Positions 3,137-29,311 of a DNA stretch of 39,656 nt are shown here, piece by piece. Source of the DNA: Kayfunavirus AN17P1. The stretch lies in the sequence record OZ035755.1; one strand, given 5' to 3'. Numbering within the stretch: position 1 is the stretch's first letter; each line of letters opens with the position of its first letter. The notes beneath the pieces are model-generated. The model was not told the origin of the DNA. It worked only from the letters and a program-made list of their open reading frames with translations, and made no database searches. The position numbers were made by a program, and so were the translations under genes.

Positions 3137-3315
3137 CCCCCGGTTACTTATAGTATTACTGTAGTGAATATACATATGCAGACTTTATTCAAGACCTTAG
3201 GAGGCAGACTCCGAGTTCTTACCTAAGGCTTGCACCGATGGAAGGAGGGTGATATTAATCATAATCCCTCCAATACAGATAGTCACCGACCATAGATACA
3301 GGAGGTATGTAGCAT

Positions 3316-3699: not shown

Positions 3700-4100
3700 A
3701 GTGTCGCCTGACCTACGGTCCTTGACCTACAGTAGCTGCCACCTACAGTATTCGATGAGTTTTGGACCAAAAGTTTGAGACCACATCTCACAGTTCAAGA
3801 ACCTCAAGTCTCCCCATAGGCCCTCTTTCAGTCCAGACCAAAGGCCCTACCCCAGTCTATCATAAGGTTAGACCGATGGTCAAGACTTCAGGTCAACGAT
3901 AGGTTGTGGCTATGGCTTAGGGAAGGACGATAGGTAGGGACTATTGGTCTGTCTTTGAGTCTCTATCTGTATCAGACCTTGAGTCACTACCTACAGTCTA
4001 ACTACCTACAGTCTAACTACCTACAGTCTAACTACCTACAGTCATCGACCATCGGTAATGCCGCTACCTACAGTCAGAGACCTACGGTTAATAGACACAA
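3700..4100. repeat. Genome terminus region: putative direct terminal repeat flanked by CCTAC(A/G)GT short repeats
   Basis: TCTCACAGTTCAAGAACC...CCCCATAGG at 3786 resembles the T7 (TCTCACAGTGTACGG) and T3 left-end sequences as I recall them; repeated GACCTACGGT / CACCTACAGT motifs on both sides mirror the CCTAAAG arrays flanking the T7 terminal repeat; no CDS. Repeat length cannot be read from a collapsed assembly. Confidence 0.5.
3986..4044. repeat. Tandem array, about 3.9 copies of 15-bp unit ACTACCTACAGTCTA
   Basis: Exact copies at 3986-4000, 4001-4015, 4016-4030 and a partial copy at 4031-4044. Confidence 0.9.
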
Positions 4101-4486: not shown

Positions 4487-4543
4487 CTAACTACAGGGTC
4501 TTTGAGTCTACATCTGAAGGCCCTGACTGATAGTCACTAACAA
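4487..4543 (+). promoter_or_regulatory. Conserved leader element, copy 1 (TAACTACAGGGTC ... CCTGACTGATAGTCACTAA), possible RNase III / translation-initiation leader
   Basis: Shares a 19-nt exact block CCTGACTGATAGTCACTAA and a TAACTACAGG(G)TC block with 4842-4892; ends about 17 nt before the start codon at 4560; small CAGGG/CCCTG stem. Confidence 0.5.
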
Positions 4544-4841: not shown

Positions 4842-4892
4842 TTAACTACAGGTCGTTAGACTGATAGCGGCCTGACTGATAGTCACTAAAAC
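4842..4892 (+). promoter_or_regulatory. Conserved leader element, copy 2, upstream of ocr
   Basis: Contains CCTGACTGATAGTCACTAA (4871-4889) and TTAACTACAGGTC; paralogous to 4487-4543. Confidence 0.5.
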
Positions 4893-6358: not shown

Positions 6359-6363
6359 TTCTG

Positions 6364-23601: not shown

Positions 23602-24489
23602 ATGTCTCAATCAGTTTATGCCGAGTTCGGCGTTAGCTCTAATGCAATCACTGGTTCCGTTGAGGACCTGAACGAACACCAAAAGTCTATGCTTGAACAG
23701 GACGTAGCTGTTCGTGATGGTGACGACGCTATTACCTTCAAGCAACTGGAAGCCGAAAACGAAGAGGCTACCGAAGAAGACGAGAACGTCGAAGAGGCTG
23801 AAGGTGAAGAAGAAGACCACGAGTCCGATGACGAAGAGTCTGAGACCGATGGTGAGCAGCCTGAGTTCATTGAACTGGGTGATGCACCGAAAGAGCTGAC
23901 CGAAAGTGTCACCGCTCTGGATGAAAACGAAGCTGCATTCGACGACATGGTGTCTTCTGCTGTGGAAGCTGGCAAGGTCACTGCTGATGAAATTACCGCT
24001 ATCAAGGCTGAATACGCCAAGGACGGTAAGCTGTCTGACGCATCCTACGCTAAGTTGCAGGAAGCAGGTTACACCAAGCGTTTCGTAGATTCGTTTGTCC
24101 GTGGTCAGGAAGCTCTGGCTGAACAGTATGCTGCTGGAGTGGTTCGCTACGCTGGTGGAGCTGAACAGTTTAACCGCATTCTGTCTCACCTTGAGTCAAC
24201 CGACCCGTCAACTCGTGAGGCACTGGAAGCTGCTATCGTTCGTAAGGACATTTCGACTACCAAAGCTCTGCTGAATCTGGCTGGCAAGACTCTTGGTAAA
24301 GCTGTAGGAGTTAAACCTCAGCGTACCATCACCACTCAGGCTAAACCTGTGGTAGCACCTAAGGCTCCTAAGACCGAAGCATTCAGCTCTAAGGCTGACA
24401 TGATTAAGGCTATGAGTGACCCGCGATACCTGCGTGACGCTAAGTACACGATGGAAGTGCGCGCTAAGGTAGCTGCATCGAGCCTGTAG
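23602..24489 (+). CDS. gene 9: Capsid assembly (scaffolding) protein (T7 gp9 homolog), 295 aa
   Basis: Highly acidic Glu/Asp-rich protein between portal and major capsid; strong SD AAAGGAG. Confidence 0.85.
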   Translation: MSQSVYAEFGVSSNAITGSVEDLNEHQKSMLEQDVAVRDGDDAITFKQLEAENEEATEEDENVEEAEGEEEDHESDDEESETDGEQPEFIELGDAPKELTESVTALDENEAAFDDMVSSAVEAGKVTADEITAIKAEYAKDGKLSDASYAKLQEAGYTKRFVDSFVRGQEALAEQYAAGVVRYAGGAEQFNRILSHLESTDPSTREALEAAIVRKDISTTKALLNLAGKTLGKAVGVKPQRTITTQAKPVVAPKAPKTEAFSSKADMIKAMSDPRYLRDAKYTMEVRAKVAASSL

Positions 24490-24490
24490 G

Positions 24491-24514
24491 ACTAAACTAT
24501 CACTATAGGGAGAC
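24491..24514 (+). promoter_or_regulatory. Phage RNAP promoter (phi10-like), best consensus match
   Basis: ACTAAACTATCACTATAGGGAGACC; only copy with the full TATAGGGAGA initiation region; about 100 nt before the capsid gene. Confidence 0.85.
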
Positions 24515-24615: not shown

Positions 24616-25671
24616 ATGGTAAACGTTCCGGGTCAGAAAATTGGTACAGACCAAGGTAAAGGCAAAGGCAAATCTGGTTCCGACGCTCTGGCGTTGTTCC
24701 TTAAGGTATTTGCTGGTGAAGTACTGACCGCATTCACTCGCCGCTCTGTAACTGCCGACAAGCATATTGTCCGTACCATTCAGAACGGTAAGTCTGCTCA
24801 GTTCCCGGTCATGGGTCGCACCTCTGGTGTGTATCTGGCTCCGGGTGAGCGACTGTCCGATAAGCGTAAAGGCATCAAACACACCGAGAAAGTGATTACC
24901 ATTGATGGTCTGCTGACTGCCGATGTGATGATTTTCGACATTGAAGACGCGATGAACCACTATGACGTGGCTGGCGAGTATTCCAACCAGCTAGGCGAAG
25001 CGCTGGCTATCGCTGCTGATGGTGCTGTTCTGGCTGAAATGGCTATCCTGTGTAACCTACCTGCAGCTTCCAACGAGAACATCGCTGGTCTAGGCACTGC
25101 GTCCGTACTGGAAGTTGGTGCCAAGGCTGACCTGAACACCCCTGCTAAACTGGGTGAAGCAATCATCGGTCAACTTACCATCGCTCGTGCGAAGCTGACC
25201 TCCAACTACGTACCTGCTGGCGACCGTTACTTCTACACCACGCCTGACAACTACTCTGCGATTCTGGCCGCTTTGATGCCTAACGCTGCTAACTACGCTG
25301 CTCTGATTGACCCTGAGACGGGCAACATCCGTAACGTAATGGGCTTCGTTGTTGTTGAGGTTCCGCACCTGACTCAGGGTGGTGCTGGTGAGACTCGTGG
25401 TGACGATGGTATCACTATCGCTTCCGGTCAGAAACACGCATTCCCAGCGACTTCTAGCGATACCGTTAAGGTTGCTCTGGACAACGTTGTGGGTCTGTTC
25501 TCTCACCGTTCTGCGGTGGGTACCGTTAAACTGCGTGACTTGGCGCTGGAACGTGACCGTGACGTCGATGCTCAGGGCGACCTGATTGTTGGTAAGTACG
25601 CTATGGGTCACGGTGGTCTGCGTCCTGAAGCAGCGGGAGCACTGGTTTTCACAGCAGCGTCAGCGGATTAA
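24616..25671 (+). CDS. gene 10: Major capsid protein 10A (T7 gp10A homolog), 351 aa
   Basis: Near-collinear identity blocks with T7 gp10A as I recall it (LALFLKVFAGEVLTAF, HTEKVITIDGLLTADV, AILAALMPNAANYAALIDPE, HRSAVGTVKLRDLALER, KYAMGHGGLRPEAAGA). Confidence 0.97.
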   Translation: MVNVPGQKIGTDQGKGKGKSGSDALALFLKVFAGEVLTAFTRRSVTADKHIVRTIQNGKSAQFPVMGRTSGVYLAPGERLSDKRKGIKHTEKVITIDGLLTADVMIFDIEDAMNHYDVAGEYSNQLGEALAIAADGAVLAEMAILCNLPAASNENIAGLGTASVLEVGAKADLNTPAKLGEAIIGQLTIARAKLTSNYVPAGDRYFYTTPDNYSAILAALMPNAANYAALIDPETGNIRNVMGFVVVEVPHLTQGGAGETRGDDGITIASGQKHAFPATSSDTVKVALDNVVGLFSHRSAVGTVKLRDLALERDRDVDAQGDLIVGKYAMGHGGLRPEAAGALVFTAASAD

Positions 25672-25934
25672 CGACCTTTAAGGCCCTCTCTACCGAGGGT
25701 CCTACCTTAGAGACGTATAGTTCTACGGTGGGAACCAGCTTGAAGGTTGACTTCCCTGAGCTTTCAGATGTGACCGACTGGTCGCTGCTTGATGTTGCTA
25801 CGCCTGATGGTGTTAGTTACTCCCGTAGAACCAACAGTCTCTACTTCAAGGCCACCTCTGGCGTGGAAGGTCTAGTGATTGTTGAGTATGACGGTTCGCC
25901 TGTGCGTTCCTTCAACGTATCTTTCACAAACTAA
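25644..25934 (+). other. gene 10B: Putative -1 programmed frameshift site (G GUU UUC) and minor capsid 10B extension
   Basis: GGTTTTC lies 6 codons before the 10A stop, as in T7 (GTG GTT TTC AAA as I recall it); the -1 frame is open from the site to TAA at 25932-25934, adding about 94 aa; the track ORF 25728-25934 is part of this frame. Confidence 0.45.
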
Positions 25935-25938
25935 TTGA

Positions 25939-25977
25939 AACCCCTTGGGTGCCTTCGGGTGCTTGAGGGGTTTTTTG
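25939..25977 (+). terminator. T-phi-like terminator hairpin
   Basis: AACCCCTTGGGTGCC-TTCG-GGTGCTTGAGGGGTTTTTTG: G-U-containing stem plus U-tract, resembling T7 T-phi (AACCCCTTGGGGCCTCTAAACGGGTCTTGAGGGGTTTTTTG) as I recall it; immediately after the capsid region. Confidence 0.75.
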
Positions 25978-25991
25978 CTTAAGGAGGGACT

Positions 25992-26081
25992 ATGGTCCTT
26001 ATTTACACAGGGTTAGCACTATTCGTCTTATTCTGGGCGTACCTTCTGTCCAGCTCACCGTCTAGTGCCTATGACCGTTAA
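25992..26081 (+). CDS. Small membrane peptide, 29 aa (MVLIYTGLALFVLFWAYLLSSSPSSAYDR)
   Basis: Strong SD TAAGGAGGG before ATG; one TM helix; between T-phi and gene 11. Confidence 0.35.
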   Translation: MVLIYTGLALFVLFWAYLLSSSPSSAYDR

Positions 26082-26093
26082 GGAGTAAAACCT

Positions 26094-26660
26094 ATGGCTC
26101 AATATATTCCACTGAATGCTAACGATGACTTAGACGCCATCAACGATATGCTAGCAGCTATCGGTGAACCAGCAGTCCTACAGCTTGACGAGGGGAACGC
26201 TGACGTATCGAACGCTCAACGTATCCTGCATCGTGTCAATCGTCAGGTCCAAGCTAAAGGATGGAACTTTAACATTAATGAAGCTGCTGTCCTGACACCT
26301 GATGTCCAAGACAACAGGATTCGATTCCTGCCGTCATACCTTCGTGTAATGACTGCCGGGGCCACCAGCTACTACAGCAACATGGGTGGATACCTATACG
26401 ACCTGTCCACTCAGTCAACCACTTTCACCGACCCTATAACGGTAGAGCTTGTTGAGATGAAACCGTTCTCTGAGATGCCTGTGGTATTCAGGGACTACAT
26501 CGTTACCAAGGCCAGCCGTGAGTTCAACGCTAAGTTCTTCGGTAGCCCAGAGTCTGAACTGTACCTTCGTGAGCAGGAAGCAGAACTCTATCAGCAGGTC
26601 ATGGAATACGAGATGGACACTGGTCGCTACAACATGATGTCCGACATCGGGAGGGACTAA
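26094..26660 (+). CDS. gene 11: Tail tubular protein A (T7 gp11 homolog), 188 aa
   Basis: Similarity to T7 gp11 as I recall it (ANARRILN.INRQIQ..GW.FNI.E, IVTKASR.FN..FFG.PE, MEYEMD.G.YNM). Confidence 0.9.
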   Translation: MAQYIPLNANDDLDAINDMLAAIGEPAVLQLDEGNADVSNAQRILHRVNRQVQAKGWNFNINEAAVLTPDVQDNRIRFLPSYLRVMTAGATSYYSNMGGYLYDLSTQSTTFTDPITVELVEMKPFSEMPVVFRDYIVTKASREFNAKFFGSPESELYLREQEAELYQQVMEYEMDTGRYNMMSDIGRD

Positions 26661-26887
26661 TGGCTAGTCACAACCTGAAGATTCACCGCCAGCACTTTGG
26701 TCCGGTACAACTAGGTCTAAAGACAGCAGAGCTGAGACTTAACGACCGGGACTTTAAGGTTGGCGATTGGCTTATCCTGAATGAGTGGGACAACGGGTAT
26801 ACTGGACAACAGGTAGCACGTAAGGTTGTCCACATTGCTGACGTTGGTGACATCGCTGAGGGATACGTCCTAATGAGTATGATTTAA
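26660..26887 (+). CDS. DUF3850-like (ASCH/PUA-fold) small protein, 75 aa, inserted between tail tube genes
   Basis: SD GGGAGGGA; motif LKIHRQHFGPVQLGLKTAELRLNDRDFKVGDWLILNEWD fits the DUF3850 signature as I recall it; T7 has gene 12 directly after gene 11. Confidence 0.6.
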   Translation: MASHNLKIHRQHFGPVQLGLKTAELRLNDRDFKVGDWLILNEWDNGYTGQQVARKVVHIADVGDIAEGYVLMSMI

Positions 26888-26896
26888 GGAGGGCAT

Positions 26897-29254
26897 ATGC
26901 CACTAATTACTCAATCAATCAAGAACCTTAAAGGTGGCATTAGCCAACAGCCTGATATACTGAGGTTCTCAGACCAAGGCGAGGAACAGGTAAACTGCTG
27001 GTCATCAGAGAGTGATGGCCTACAGAAGCGTCCACCTACAGTCTTCAAGCGACGTCTTAACATCGACGTTGGGAGCAACCCTAAGTTCCACCTGATTAAC
27101 CGTGATGAGCAGGAGCAGTATTACATCGTGTTCAACGGGTCCAACATTCAGGTAGTTGACTTGAGTGGTAATCAATACTCAGTTTCCGGTGCGGTAGATT
27201 ACGTTAAGTCGTCCAACCCGCGAGATGACATACGTGTCGTTACCGTTGCAGACTATACGTTCATCGTGAACCGTAAGGTTGTCGTTAAAGGTGGAAGCGA
27301 GAAGTCACACTCTGGTTATAATCGTAAAGCTCGTGCTTTAATTAACCTGCGTGGTGGACAGTATGGTCGCACCCTTAAGGTAGGAATCAACGGAGGCGTT
27401 AAGGTTTCGCATAAGCTGCCAGCAGGTAATGATGCCGAGAATGACCCACCTAAGGTGGATGCTCAGGCCATCGGTGCAGCTCTGAGAGACCTTCTTGTTG
27501 CTGCCTATCCTACCTTCACGTTTGACCTTGGGTCTGGCTTCCTGTTAATCACTGCACCTGAAGGGACCGACATTAACGCAGTGGAGACGGAGGATGGCTA
27601 CGCTAACCAGCTAATAAGCCCAGTCCTAGACACTGTGCAGACAATCTCTAAACTACCTCTTGCCGCTCCTAATGGGTATATCATTAAGATTCAAGGTGAG
27701 ACCAACAGTAGCGCCGATGAATATTACGTGATGTATGACTCCAACACTAAGACGTGGAAGGAGACAGTAGAGCCGGGAGTGGTCACTGGGTTCGATAACA
27801 CCACAATGCCACATGCTCTGGTGAGACAATCTGACGGCTCCTTTGAGTTCAAGACTCTGGACTGGTCTAAGCGTGGTGCTGGTAATGATGACACAAACCC
27901 TATGCCTAGCTTCGTGGATGCTACGATTAACGATGTGTTCTTCTACAGGAACAGGCTAGGGTTCTTGTCAGGCGAGAACGTAATCATGAGCCGTTCAGCC
28001 AGCTACTTTTCGTTCTTCCCTAAGAGTGTGGCGACACTGAGTGATGATGACCCTATTGATGTAGCTGTAAGTCACCCTCGAATCTCAATCCTTAAGTATG
28101 CCGTTCCGTTTAGCGAGCAGCTACTACTTTGGTCTGATGAGGTTCAGTTCGTGATGACAAGCTCTGGGGTGCTTACCTCGAAGTCTATCCAGCTTGATGT
28201 AGGCTCAGAGTTTGCCTTAGGAGATAATGCCAGACCGTTCGCTGTAGGACGCTCAGTCTTCTTCCCAGCGCCTCGTGGGTCATTCACCAGCATTAAGCGA
28301 TACTTCGCTGTAGCAGATGTGTCTGACGTGAAGGATGCCGATGATACCACTGGTCACGTACTGTCCTATATCCCTAACGGGGTGTTTGACATTCAAGGTA
28401 CAGGGACTGAGAACTACATCTGCGTCAACTCTACAGGTGCATACAACCTAATCTACATCTATAAGTTCTTGTTTAAGGACGGCGTACAGCTTCAAGCCTC
28501 TTGGTCGCACTGGGAGTTCCCTAAAGCTGATAAGATTCTGGCGTCTGCTTCGATTGGCTCTACCATGTTCATTGTTCGTCAGCACCAAGGCGGCGTGGAC
28601 CTTGAGCACCTTAAGTTTATCAAGGAGGCAACCGACTTTCCGTTAGAGCCATATAGACTCCACGTTGACTCCAAGGTGTCTATGGTAATACCAATTGGCT
28701 CATACAACGTTGACACCTATAAGACTACGGTTGACATTGGTTCTGCTTATGGTGGAAACGCTCCGTCTCCCGGTCGGTACTATCTTATTGACAGTCAGGG
28801 TGCCTACGTGGACCTTGGTGAATTGACAGACATCTCAACTGTGGCTATACTAAATGGCGATTGGTCAGGACGTACAGTGTTCATAGGACGGTCTTATCTG
28901 ATGTCCTACAAGTTCTCACGGTTCCTGATTAAGATTGAAGACGGTAGCGGCACTCAATCTGAAGACACTGGTCGTCTACAACTTCGTCGGGCTTGGGTCA
29001 ACTACAAGGACACTGGCGCTCTTAGACTCATTGTCAGAAACGGTGAGCGGGAGTTCGTGAATACCTTTAATGGGTACACCCTTGGTCAGCAGACCATTGG
29101 GACTACCAACATTGGTGACGGTCAGTATCGCTTCGCTATGAATGGTAACGCATTAATCACGAGTCTAACCTTAGAGTCAGATTATCCTACCCCAGTGTCC
29201 ATCGTTGGCTGTGGCTGGGAGGCGTCATACGCTAAGAAAGCTCGTTCTGTCTAA
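26897..29254 (+). CDS. gene 12: Tail tubular protein B (T7 gp12 homolog), 785 aa
   Basis: N-terminus MPLITQSIKNLKGGISQQPDILRFSDQG matches T7 gp12 MALISQSIKNLKGGISQQPDILRYPDQG as I recall it, with many collinear blocks (RNRLGFLSGEN, LKYAVPFSE, GRLQLRRAWVNY). Confidence 0.96.
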   Translation: MPLITQSIKNLKGGISQQPDILRFSDQGEEQVNCWSSESDGLQKRPPTVFKRRLNIDVGSNPKFHLINRDEQEQYYIVFNGSNIQVVDLSGNQYSVSGAVDYVKSSNPRDDIRVVTVADYTFIVNRKVVVKGGSEKSHSGYNRKARALINLRGGQYGRTLKVGINGGVKVSHKLPAGNDAENDPPKVDAQAIGAALRDLLVAAYPTFTFDLGSGFLLITAPEGTDINAVETEDGYANQLISPVLDTVQTISKLPLAAPNGYIIKIQGETNSSADEYYVMYDSNTKTWKETVEPGVVTGFDNTTMPHALVRQSDGSFEFKTLDWSKRGAGNDDTNPMPSFVDATINDVFFYRNRLGFLSGENVIMSRSASYFSFFPKSVATLSDDDPIDVAVSHPRISILKYAVPFSEQLLLWSDEVQFVMTSSGVLTSKSIQLDVGSEFALGDNARPFAVGRSVFFPAPRGSFTSIKRYFAVADVSDVKDADDTTGHVLSYIPNGVFDIQGTGTENYICVNSTGAYNLIYIYKFLFKDGVQLQASWSHWEFPKADKILASASIGSTMFIVRQHQGGVDLEHLKFIKEATDFPLEPYRLHVDSKVSMVIPIGSYNVDTYKTTVDIGSAYGGNAPSPGRYYLIDSQGAYVDLGELTDISTVAILNGDWSGRTVFIGRSYLMSYKFSRFLIKIEDGSGTQSEDTGRLQLRRAWVNYKDTGALRLIVRNGEREFVNTFNGYTLGQQTIGTTNIGDGQYRFAMNGNALITSLTLESDYPTPVSIVGCGWEASYAKKARSV

Positions 29255-29261
29255 CTTATTG

Positions 29262-29311
29262 AAGGGCCTATAGATTTACCTTAACTATCACTATAGGGAC
29301 TATAGGCCCTT
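29262..29311. repeat. Perfect 12-bp inverted repeat AAGGGCCTATAG / CTATAGGCCCTT enclosing the phi13 promoter core
   Basis: Arms at 29262-29273 and 29300-29311 are exact reverse complements; the 26-nt loop holds TTAACTATCACTATAGGGA. Confidence 0.6.
29279..29302 (+). promoter_or_regulatory. Phage RNAP promoter (phi13-like)
   Basis: CCTTAACTATCACTATAGGGACT; consensus match. Confidence 0.75.

Follow-up and report, generated by a model that had tools for sequence, protein, structure and literature searches.

Between tail genes 11 and 12 of Kayfunavirus AN17P1, a K1F-like phage, lies a short reading frame that is almost certainly a genuine accessory gene of the DUF3850/ASCH type. The window analysed here is the whole 39,656-nucleotide stretch of sequence record OZ035755.1, and all positions refer to it. 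Taken together, the data are best explained by an acquired mini-ASCH gene whose product stays outside the virion and offers a pocket for a modified base, with N-acyl hydrolysis as the favoured candidate for its activity; this composite account has about an even chance of being right. The presence of a DUF3850 gene between the tail genes is not new: public records already annotate it, and Citrobacter phage CR44b has had a 'gene 11.05' since 2014.

Gene layout and the empty site

The gene and its surroundings are arranged as follows.

24487–24511, plus strand: phage RNA polymerase promoter of the ten-copy CTAAACTATCACTATAGG family, 5' of gene 10 and the nearest upstream promoter for the gene 11/DUF3850/gene 12 transcript
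25952–25979, plus strand: T-phi-like hairpin with T-run between genes 10 and 11; genes 11, DUF3850 and 12 lie downstream
26094–26660, plus strand: gene 11 (tail tubular protein A, gatekeeper), the upstream neighbour; 100% amino-acid identity to K1F gp11; Pfam Tube in homologous loci
26650–26654, plus strand: Shine–Dalgarno sequence GGAGG of the DUF3850 gene, within the 3' end of gene 11 and 5 nt 5' of the ATG
26658–26662, plus strand: TAATG stop/start overlap of gene 11 and the DUF3850 gene, with one base in common; a translational-coupling layout
26660–26887, plus strand: DUF3850 (mini-ASCH) coding sequence, an ORF with ATG at 26660 and TAA at 26885–26887; 75 amino acids
26888–26896, plus strand: 9-nt spacer GGAGGGCAT after the DUF3850 TAA, holding the gene 12 Shine–Dalgarno sequence GGAGG at 26888–26892
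26897–29254, plus strand: gene 12 (tail tubular protein B, nozzle), the downstream neighbour; 96.8% amino-acid identity to K1F gp12; Pfam Phage_nozzle in homologous loci

The sequence-only reading described an insertion between tail tube genes that are contiguous in T7, with a strong Shine–Dalgarno sequence of its own and with start and stop overlapping both neighbours. The insertion is borne out: T7 genes 11 and 12 are parted by a 23-nt spacer holding no ORF, and comparison with K1F reveals a clean 237-bp indel, the block 26660–26896 (coding sequence plus 9-nt spacer) being missing in that phage. The Shine–Dalgarno sequence is in place and the start does overlap gene 11; the stop does not reach gene 12, whose ATG at 26897 lies beyond the spacer. 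In K1F the GGAGG matching 26650–26654 is the Shine–Dalgarno sequence of gene 12, and the left junction GGGAGGGACTAATG is kept in filled and empty genomes alike.

Scans for the promoter family and for terminators found neither a phage-promoter copy nor a terminator between genes 11 and 12; the next copy of the CTAAACTATCACTATAGG family is at 29275–29299, and sigma-70-like matches are at chance level. This arrangement suggests that the gene, having no promoter of its own, would share with tail genes 11 and 12 a late mRNA produced by read-through of the T-phi-like terminator, and that its translation would be coupled to that of gene 11 via the TAATG overlap and served by its own GGAGG.

The gene recurs at this site in approximately 150 GenBank/RefSeq phage records, under the names 'RNA-binding protein', 'DUF3850' or 'hypothetical'. 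Kayfunavirus records such as phiHAO1-1 (gp39), GA2A (gp43) and EPr2 share the slot, the TAATG coupling and the length, most with 93–100% protein identity, and it is this prevalent, canonical allele that the window carries. Diverged phages harbour alleles of 85, 77, 69, 61 and 45% identity in the identical gp11–gp12 slot; gene 11.05 of CR44b is the counterpart of the window gene at only 45% identity and has lost several family-invariant residues. The empty junction is present in 27 records in all, K1F, ZG49 and about 20 other relatives among them. K1F and ZG49 lack the DUF3850 gene, although their gp11 is 100% identical to that of the window and their gp12 no less than 96.8%. The sequence-only reading had counted on the ORF being present in otherwise near-identical phages; its absence from K1F, ZG49 and some 20 others, with gp11 up to 100% identical, marks it as an optional accessory gene that is not integral to the tail module. 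Since K1F does without it despite an identical gp11, the gene is dispensable. On the favoured reading, Kayfunavirus phages gained this accessory gene by horizontal transfer.

Scattered among the essential genes of T7-like phages are small non-essential genes and genes for homing endonucleases. The DUF3850 cassette resembles these in being compact, bounded by Shine–Dalgarno and start sequences, promoterless, dispensable and variably present; unlike homing-endonuclease genes, it codes for neither a nuclease nor a mobility function. An Endonuclease_7-type gene lies directly 3' of the DUF3850 gene in KM02, Hafnia yong1 and Enterobacter B1. This is a separate, rarer insertion, which is not in the window and is not found in most DUF3850 carriers.

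The DUF3850 gene is under purifying selection, with a dN/dS of ∼0.13 over 125 pairs; all 28 filled loci preserve an intact ORF, free of frameshifts and stops, and the gene is kept at the same site across alleles diverged to dS >1. Judged by these comparisons, the gene is probably functional. Its dS of 0.11, set against 0.27–0.30 in the flanks, indicates a younger coalescence; the tract of low diversity spans 26619–26843. An embedded RNA element as the cause of this low synonymous diversity was considered and rejected, the fold of 26620–26900 being not significant (z −1.67); a search of Rfam over 25400–27400 gave no match at E ≤ 1. A foreign composition was likewise ruled out, GC (0.49) and GC3 (0.52) being equal to those of gp12.

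Fold, family and conserved residues

The DUF3850/ASCH identity proposed from the sequence holds up in profile and structure comparisons, the profile match being much stronger than chance would give. Pfam DUF3850 (PF12961) scores 70.1 bits against a gathering cut-off of 22.9 (E 1.9e-19), the match spanning residues 4–73 and profile positions 2–76 of 77. Pfam ASCH (PF04266) follows with 26.2 bits against a cut-off of 21.2 (E 1.4e-5), over profile positions 2–61 of 103 only. PHROG 986 ('RNA-binding protein') aligns residues 1–74 to profile positions 95–171 of 253 at E 2.8e-35, and NCBIfam profiles give no match. DUF3850 and ASCH are the only domains found with Pfam, which detects no nuclease domain in the protein.

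The closest structure is PDB 3IUW, a structural-genomics entry from Enterococcus faecalis V583 (NP_814290.1) deposited as 'activating signal cointegrator', which is matched by sequence at E 1e-10 and with a profile at E 2.9e-19. In Foldseek the AF2 model of the window protein (pLDDT 93.6) superposes on 3IUW with a TM of 0.92, an rmsd of 1.2 Å and 41% identity: the modelled protein has the 3IUW-type fold. Next, in this order, come YqfB, PH0355, PF0470, TTHA0113, ZmASCH, EOLA1 and TRIP4 (solution structure 2E5O), with probabilities of 0.84–1.00 and TMq of 0.60–0.75; the TRIP4–DNA complex 9KYL ranks lower (probability 0.47, TMq 0.57). In comparison with PF12961 and 3IUW, to which identity is ∼40%, nothing essential differs: the block K-T-x-E-x-R-x-N-D-R-[DN]-F-x-V-G-D is common to all, and the window protein is a typical stand-alone member, without the extra C- or N-terminal regions (DUF551, ParB-CTPase, HTH) that many PF12961 members possess. 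Two motifs stand out.

26714–26737, plus strand: ASCH octapeptide GLKTAELR (G19, K21, E24, R26), which fits GxKxxExR
26741–26767, plus strand: DUF3850 hallmark NDRDFKVGD, residues 28–36, also in 3IUW

K21, E24 and R26 are conserved in at least 97% of 70 unique DUF3850 homologs, and in the octapeptide of 109 multi-domain DUF3850 representatives the Lys and Glu are invariant and the Arg nearly so. The wider hallmark K-x-x-E-x-R-x-N-D-R-[DN]-[FY]-x-x-G-D is present in full in the window protein (K21, E24, R26, N28, D29, R30, D31, F32, K33, V34, G35, D36); the conservation of NDRDFKVGD in the IMG/VR sample is in part ascertainment-biased, these loci having been collected by the pattern NDRDFKVG. 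Two Kayfunavirus alleles have other residues at family-invariant pocket positions, with the ORF kept: that of CR44b carries K7I, E24D and NDRDF changed to SIPEI, and in that of LET1 RLNDRDF has become RPYDEGY. On sequence grounds, either selection in this slot may not be for pocket function or these copies may be decaying.

The DUF3850 family is very large: at 50% identity it falls into 16,015 clusters, and phages and prophages account for many of these. Homologs in other phages have as neighbours P2 gpA, NinB/NinG, Toprim primases, Dam, N6_N4 and Mom methylases, and further RecU, Gam, SNF2 and an exoribonuclease. These homologs sit in replication, recombination and DNA-modification modules and not in structural ones, so that a tail operon is an unusual place for a family member, as the earlier remark that the gene is unexpected in a late structural operon had it. 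Fusions are not decisive as to function: among the 109 multi-domain representatives there are 11 with DUF551, one with a dATP/dGTP pyrophosphohydrolase and a few with HTH, and in ten fused homologs from IMG/VR loci Pfam recognises no second domain. The literature that mentions DUF3850 assigns no function to any member.

Candidate functions

The product would be a stand-alone minimal ASCH/PUA-like β-barrel of the DUF3850 family. Acidic and basic residues are mixed in a dense cluster of conserved positions that is pocket-like: the family-invariant polar residues H4, K7, K21, E24, R26, N28–D31, D36 and E42 and the conserved aromatics F13, F32, W43, Y47 and Y69 would line a pocket that binds a modified nucleobase or nucleoside, whether as a free molecule or within a nucleic acid. 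That this is a modified-base pocket protein is somewhat better than an even bet. The activity envisaged is the hydrolysis of an exocyclic N-acyl group (ac4C-type amidohydrolysis), which appears more likely than general RNA binding; it is put first because the Lys-Glu(-Arg) octapeptide, catalytic in GKER-type ASCH enzymes, is kept.

The enzymes to compare are YqfB, the E. coli ac4C amidohydrolase (PDB 9KYF/9KYH), and the GKER-type TthASCH (2DP9), EOLA1 and TRIP4-ASCH. In a recent preprint all 19 ASCH proteins tested deacetylate ac4C, none of them a DUF3850 or phage protein, and GKER-type proteins cannot carry out this reaction without the Lys and Glu of the octapeptide; according to its discussion, studies conflict on ac4C deacetylation by the GKER type (bioRxiv 10.64898/2026.02.27.708502). 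The window protein shares with these enzymes the PUA-like β-barrel (TMq 0.57–0.75), the GxKxxExR octapeptide and the F-K-x-G-D strand. It differs from them in an additional invariant N-D-R-D loop, which is DUF3850-specific, and in being ∼30 residues shorter than canonical ASCH, without the helical segment that holds YqfB Glu74. This segment is judged to be missing because the match to the ASCH profile stops at position 61 of 103 and the hhalign alignment to YqfB is restricted to residues 10–47; within that alignment K21, E24 and R26 are in register with K21, T24 and R26 of YqfB. The C-terminal part that carries YqfB Glu74 or TthASCH Tyr81 is absent, as the protein ends at residue 75; no counterpart of Tyr81 can be aligned, and Y47 or Y69 in this role are guesses. 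Catalysis may perhaps have been lost in the window protein, and its specific identification as an N4-acylcytidine amidohydrolase is doubtful.

The protein is probably not a virion component and would act inside the infected cell, in its cytoplasm. In the CR44b record, genes 11 and 12 are marked as matched by mass spectrometry and 11.05 is not, a negative and indirect observation, and the virion analysis of that phage did detect the 82-residue gp7.3. The virion proteomes of SH3/SH4 and B1 do not bear on packaging, SH3 being without the gene and B1 being represented by gel bands only.

Two alternatives to a modified-base hydrolase are unlikely to a similar degree. The first is an anti-defence role, in which the mini-ASCH barrel would sequester or destroy a modified nucleotide that acts as host alarm or toxin product, candidates being m6dAMP from the phage-degraded host chromosome, which is sensed by Metis and PUA-Cal-HAD, and the products of GNAT-type acetylating toxins. 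Host DNA is broken down in T7-like phages by gp3 and gp6, and domains of the PUA/ASCH clan are the m6dAMP sensors in both defence systems, for which no phage counter-measure is described. ASCH genes are also found alongside operons for GNAT-EVE toxins and with type I restriction-modification systems, DNA methylases adjoin the phage homologs, and presence/absence polymorphism in near-identical phages combined with the reduced dS (0.11 versus 0.27–0.30) is a typical counter-defence pattern. Against this, the PADLOC match is at chance level only (E 0.007), expression with the late tail genes is late for counter-defence, and pocket residues are lost in the CR44b and LET1 alleles. The broader proposal, that the phage DUF3850 family constitutes a counter-defence class directed at modified-nucleotide alarms or toxin products (m6dAMP; acetylated cytidine or tRNA from GNAT toxins), of which the Kayfunavirus copy would be a recently spreading allele in a tail operon, is a shade less probable still.

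The second alternative is an RNA-binding regulator that would bind phage or host RNA, for instance the gene 11–12 mRNA or tRNA, and tune late translation or RNA stability with no catalysis. It draws on the PHROG 986 label (E 2.8e-35) and the identical RefSeq name, on the historical tie of the PUA/ASCH superfamily to RNA binding and on the ssRNase activity of ZmASCH (PMC5615036). The label, however, is a transferred prediction for which no supporting experiment was found in the literature. The product, computed from its translation as an 8.5 kDa protein of pI 6.4 and net charge −1.1 with only eight Lys and Arg residues, is probably no generic nucleic-acid binder; its conserved mixed acidic/basic cluster has the character of a pocket, ASCH catalytic domains on their own, without an additional HTH, gave no tRNA shift in EMSA, and there is no conserved RNA structure nearby (fold z −1.67, no Rfam match).

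A functionless hitch-hiker, persisting without benefit through linkage or through co-conversion with the neighbouring homing endonuclease, is highly improbable. Dispensability, the Endonuclease_7-type gene directly 3' in KM02, Hafnia yong1 and Enterobacter B1, a low synonymous diversity that fits recent spread and the degenerate pocket motifs of CR44b and LET1 would all suit such a passenger, but the dN/dS of ∼0.13 with 28 loci devoid of frameshift or stop, the retention of the gene at one site in alleles beyond dS 1, the lack of an endonuclease gene in most carriers and the normal diversity beside the endonuclease insertion point (0.073) tell against it.

The T7 tail structures are sufficiently built from gp8, gp11, gp12 and gp17. 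A tail-assembly chaperone or minor virion protein working with gp11 and gp12 is the least credible proposal of all and largely refuted: the gp11–gp12 slot is kept in alleles down to 45% identity and the gene is translationally coupled to gene 11, yet a T7-type tail protein should be present wherever gp11 and gp12 are, and T7, K1F and ZG49 are without the gene, the latter two building tails with an identical gp11, while siphovirus and myovirus homologs lie in replication modules, CR44b mass spectrometry flags gp11, gp12 and the small gp7.3 and not gp11.05, and the T7 tail needs only the four proteins named.

Significance

For the window, these observations describe a catalogued, optional and largely ordinary accessory gene, and a tail module that works without it. 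For annotation the lesson is that the name 'RNA-binding protein' lacks support. The 75-residue copy represents a minimal, naturally knock-out-validated member of DUF3850 in a genetically tractable T7-like phage. The wider value lies in the size of this family and in recent reports that link ASCH to ac4C deacetylation and the PUA/ASCH clan to the sensing of modified mononucleotides in antiphage defence.

Junction and transcription context of the gene

The 75-residue ORF that a sequence-only reading had placed between genes 11 and 12, which encode tail tubular proteins A and B, is present and has its own Shine-Dalgarno sequence. The observation is real except for one wrong detail. The start does overlap gene 11 (TAATG, the A of the ATG being shared with the gene 11 TAA), but the stop does not overlap gene 12, which starts at 26897 after a 9-nt spacer.

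Features of the junction
25952-25979, T-phi-like hairpin with T-run
26650-26654, + strand, Shine-Dalgarno sequence GGAGG, 5 nt 5' of the ATG
26660-26887, + strand, DUF3850 gene, ATG 26660 to TAA 26885-26887
26888-26896, + strand, spacer GGAGGGCAT directly after the TAA, the gene 12 ribosome-binding site

A phage-RNA-polymerase promoter-like sequence with core CTAAACTATCACTATAGG is present in ten copies (3109, 9426, 11286, 12251, 14637, 20654, 23478, 24487, 29275 and 36551), and this family defines the transcription units of the window. The copies nearest to the DUF3850 gene precede gene 10 (24487) and follow gene 12 (29275); among the window repeat families, none falls between genes 11 and 12. 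The positions of promoters and hairpin would place genes 11, DUF3850 and 12 on one common late transcript. In T7 the equivalent transcript arises only when the polymerase reads past the terminator that follows gene 10, and by analogy the transcript carrying the DUF3850 gene would depend on the same event. The TAATG overlap and the GGAGG suggest that translation is coupled to that of gene 11.

Several other features were observed in the window. A further promoter-like copy lies near 6360, in repeat family D4. At 25629-25934 (+) the -1 frame is open past the gene 10 stop (25669-25671) to 25934 and looks like a frameshift extension of the T7 gene 10B type; its distal part is inconsistently annotated in related records as 'hypothetical protein' or 'minor capsid protein'. 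The early region harbours three exact tandem 15-nt units (ACTACCTACAGTCTA) at 3986-4043, with related degenerate copies at 3273-3297 and 4032-4088, and an exact 19-nt direct repeat, CCTGACTGATAGTCACTAA, at 4522-4540 and 4871-4889, 349 nt apart.

Presence and absence among relatives

The sequence of the window is that of a Kayfunavirus (K1F-like, Studiervirinae). Its region 26000-27600 has matches in 217 phage records, with nucleotide identity of 90-97% for most of them. By tblastn, the DUF3850 protein is found in 146 records at at least 95% identity and in ∼157 at at least 80%; in all records listed at the latter level (a spread of 60) the gene adjoins the tail-tube genes, and it is annotated there as 'hypothetical protein', 'RNA-binding protein' or 'DUF3850 domain-containing protein'. 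The slot was called gene 11.05 in Citrobacter phage CR44b (2014, PMC4038870), and the feature is therefore already catalogued: it is an optional accessory gene that records of Kayfunavirus phages already annotate. Four Kayfunavirus-type records (OR786095.1, PV615262.1, PP889465.1 and PV485104.1; hits H57, H24, H23 and H41) are filed as Staphylococcus, Acinetobacter and Klebsiella phages, host labels that look doubtful.

In K1F, gene 12 begins at the gene 11 TAATG, and alignment with the window reveals a clean 237-bp indel (window 26660-26896) between a gp11 that is 100% identical and a gp12 that is 96.8% identical; ZG49 is similar. T7 has a 23-nt spacer without an ORF at this point. The proposed insertion between genes 11 and 12 is borne out by the indel against K1F. 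Probing with 60 nt that span the K1F junction located the empty site, lacking the gene, in 27 records from ∼20 phages, and a composite probe separated three junction states among close relatives by span.

Junction states by composite probe
637 nt, filled (DUF3850 gene present), the commonest state
400 nt, empty
1055 nt, filled with an extra endonuclease gene

Absence from near-identical phages, chosen beforehand as the outcome that would speak against the proposal, is what the 27 empty records, K1F and ZG49 among them, display. It leaves the identity of the gene unrefuted and shows, as judged from gene content, that the gene is not an integral component of the tail module. By synonymous distance of the flanks, empty phages nest within the filled group (gp11 dS is 0.051 between ZG49 and locus L019, against a mean of 0.30 among filled genomes), a pattern which shows that the gene was gained or lost recently or repeatedly. 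The left junction, GGGAGGGACTAATG, is identical in filled and empty genomes, and the right junction reads TAA, 0-5 nt, GGAGG, 3-4 nt, ATG; recombination between these two imperfect SD-ATG repeats would excise the cassette precisely.

Endonuclease_7-family genes directly after the DUF3850 gene, ahead of gene 12
L002 2307-2747, phage KM02
L092 1940-2380, Hafnia phage yong1
ORF41, Enterobacter phage B1 (PMC12785254)

These inserts of 146-158 aa, probably homing endonucleases, occur in a minority of relatives and are absent from the window. Since some relatives carry them, the gene 11-12 junction is a recurrent insertion site.

Selection and allele diversity

The ORF is intact in 28/28 filled T7-like loci, and its median dN/dS of 0.13 (125 pairs with dS > 0.05; gp11, 0.025) indicates a functional gene under purifying selection. 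Divergent alleles occupy the same slot.

Alleles by identity to the window
GA2A (L098) and L021, 85%
L005-L007, 77%
L008, 69%
Pectobacterium phage LET1, L097 1701-1919, 61%
CR44b gene 11.05, L100 22053-22277, 45%

The CR44b allele carries K7I, E24D and NDRDF to SIPEI, with the Pfam score down to 26.6 bits, and the LET1 allele RLNDRDF to RPYDEGY; both keep the ORF. This replacement of family-invariant pocket residues could reflect decay or altered function.

For the 21 genomes that share the window-type allele, pairwise dS averages 0.113 in the DUF3850 gene against 0.298 in gp11 and 0.270 in the opening 600 nt of gp12; in 89% of the 210 pairs the DUF3850 gene has a lower dS than either flank. 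Third-position diversity of the gene, compared over 13 close loci, is 0.067, lower than in all 823 equally long in-frame gp11/gp12 windows (minimum 0.096). The low-diversity tract, ∼2.5 times below its flanks, is window 26619-26843 (the gene 11 3' end and most of the DUF3850 gene), where neither a significant RNA fold nor an Rfam match was found. Lower synonymous diversity points to a common ancestor of the cassette younger than that of the flanks; the cause would be either recent spread or sweep of the cassette by recombination or extra nucleotide-level constraint. In the relatives that carry it, the homing-type Endonuclease_7 gene might promote co-conversion, but diversity is normal immediately beside its junction.

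Fold, family and candidate function

The DUF3850/ASCH-like assignment made from sequence is upheld and can be regarded as virtually certain. Pfam DUF3850 matches at 70.1 bits (cut-off 22.9; E 1.9e-19; profile positions 2-76 of 77), Pfam ASCH at 26.2 bits (cut-off 21.2; E 1.4e-5), limited to profile positions 2-61 of 103, and PHROG 986, labelled 'RNA-binding protein', at E 2.8e-35. By sequence, 3IUW is the sole solved relative (E 1.2e-10; 2.9e-19 with a profile); it is an 83-aa protein from Enterococcus faecalis, solved by structural genomics. An AlphaFold2 model from 31 sequences (pLDDT 93.6) predicts the topology beta1, helix, beta2 to beta5; its best Foldseek match in the PDB is 3IUW (TM 0.92, rmsd 1.2 Å), followed by the ASCH-type structures PH0355, YqfB (9KYF/9KYH), PF0470, TTHA0113, ZmASCH, EOLA1 and TRIP4 (TMq 0.57-0.75), and BFVD matches are phage DUF3850/ASCH proteins. 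Profile and predicted fold together describe a minimal ASCH/PUA-like barrel. The ASCH octapeptide GxKxxExR appears as G19-L-K21-T-A-E24-L-R26, with K21, E24 and R26 aligning with YqfB K21, T24 and R26 (profile alignment). Unlike the canonical ASCH domain, the protein lacks the C-terminal part that holds YqfB Glu74.

Searched with a profile, 1.84 billion representatives gave 16,015 proteins at E <= 1e-3, of which 5,102 reach E <= 1e-10; many of the proteins carry additional regions. The families that could be recognised among 149 ORFs neighbouring homologs in contigs of non-T7 phages (P2 gpA, NinB, NinG, Toprim primases, Dam, N6_N4 methylase, Mom, RecU, Mu Gam, SNF2 helicase, 3'-5' exoribonuclease, CII and HNH) indicate replication, recombination and DNA-modification modules, the only exceptions being one small terminase and one lysin. 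Replication gene A is the neighbour of the gene in P2-like prophages. Fusions in 109 longer representatives comprise DUF551 (11/109, the commonest recognisable partner), one dATP/dGTP pyrophosphohydrolase and a few HTH domains; many DUF3850 proteins (Kagunavirus-like L022-L024, P2-like L036-L046, P0032-P0180) are extended at the N or C terminus by 70-250 aa without a Pfam match. Outside the podoviruses, the closest relatives, at 60-65% identity, come from enterobacterial siphoviruses (Kagunavirus and Erwinia phage Midgardsormr38), and phages of this type are plausible donors. In the literature searched, DUF3850 is named in seven papers, the most informative being on ParB-CTPase-DUF3850 fusions in prophages, and the function of this gene is discussed nowhere.

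Beyond identity, dispensability, selection and context, what is proposed for the gene is inference. Seventy unique homologs have H4, L6, K7, K21, E24, R26, N28, D29, R30, D31, F32, K33, V34, G35, D36, L40 and E42 (near-)invariant; conservation at 28-35 is partly inflated by the search pattern used to collect them, and the same residues are invariant in an unbiased set. Such a dense polar cluster in a small, slightly acidic protein (8.5 kDa, net charge -1.1, pI 6.4) suggests a pocket or active site, not a basic surface for binding nucleic acids. Among ASCH proteins, YqfB acts as an N4-acetylcytidine amidohydrolase (PMC6972931), and removal of ac4C from tRNA is reported for 19 members of GKTR and GKER types, with Lys and Glu/Thr of the octapeptide essential and TthASCH Tyr14 and Tyr81 contributing with free nucleoside (2026 preprint, bioRxiv 10.64898/2026.02.27.708502). 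The DUF3850 protein has in common with these enzymes the Lys, Glu, Arg and an aromatic at position 13; no counterpart of Tyr81 could be aligned. The best-supported model is a cytoplasmic, late-expressed accessory protein, probably non-virion, whose pocket would recognise a modified base, a reading held with somewhat better than even confidence; hydrolysis of an N-acyl group of the ac4C type is possible, though less likely than not.

An attractive but speculative alternative is counter-defence, the putative sequestering or destroying of m6dAMP or acetylated nucleotides, because the sensors of Metis and PUA-Cal-HAD are PUA/ASCH-clan domains and ASCH genes accompany GNAT-EVE toxin operons; the many homologs in temperate phages weaken it. 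The database label of a generic RNA-binding regulator finds no support in the net charge, in experiment or in a nearby RNA element. A tail-assembly or virion role is contradicted by K1F and ZG49, which lack the gene; the CR44b record, which notes mass-spectrometry matches for genes 11 and 12, not 11.05, also makes it less likely. Purifying selection contradicts a mere hitch-hiker. DUF3850 is a very large family lacking an assigned function, and this gene is chiefly of value as a tractable entry point for assigning one.
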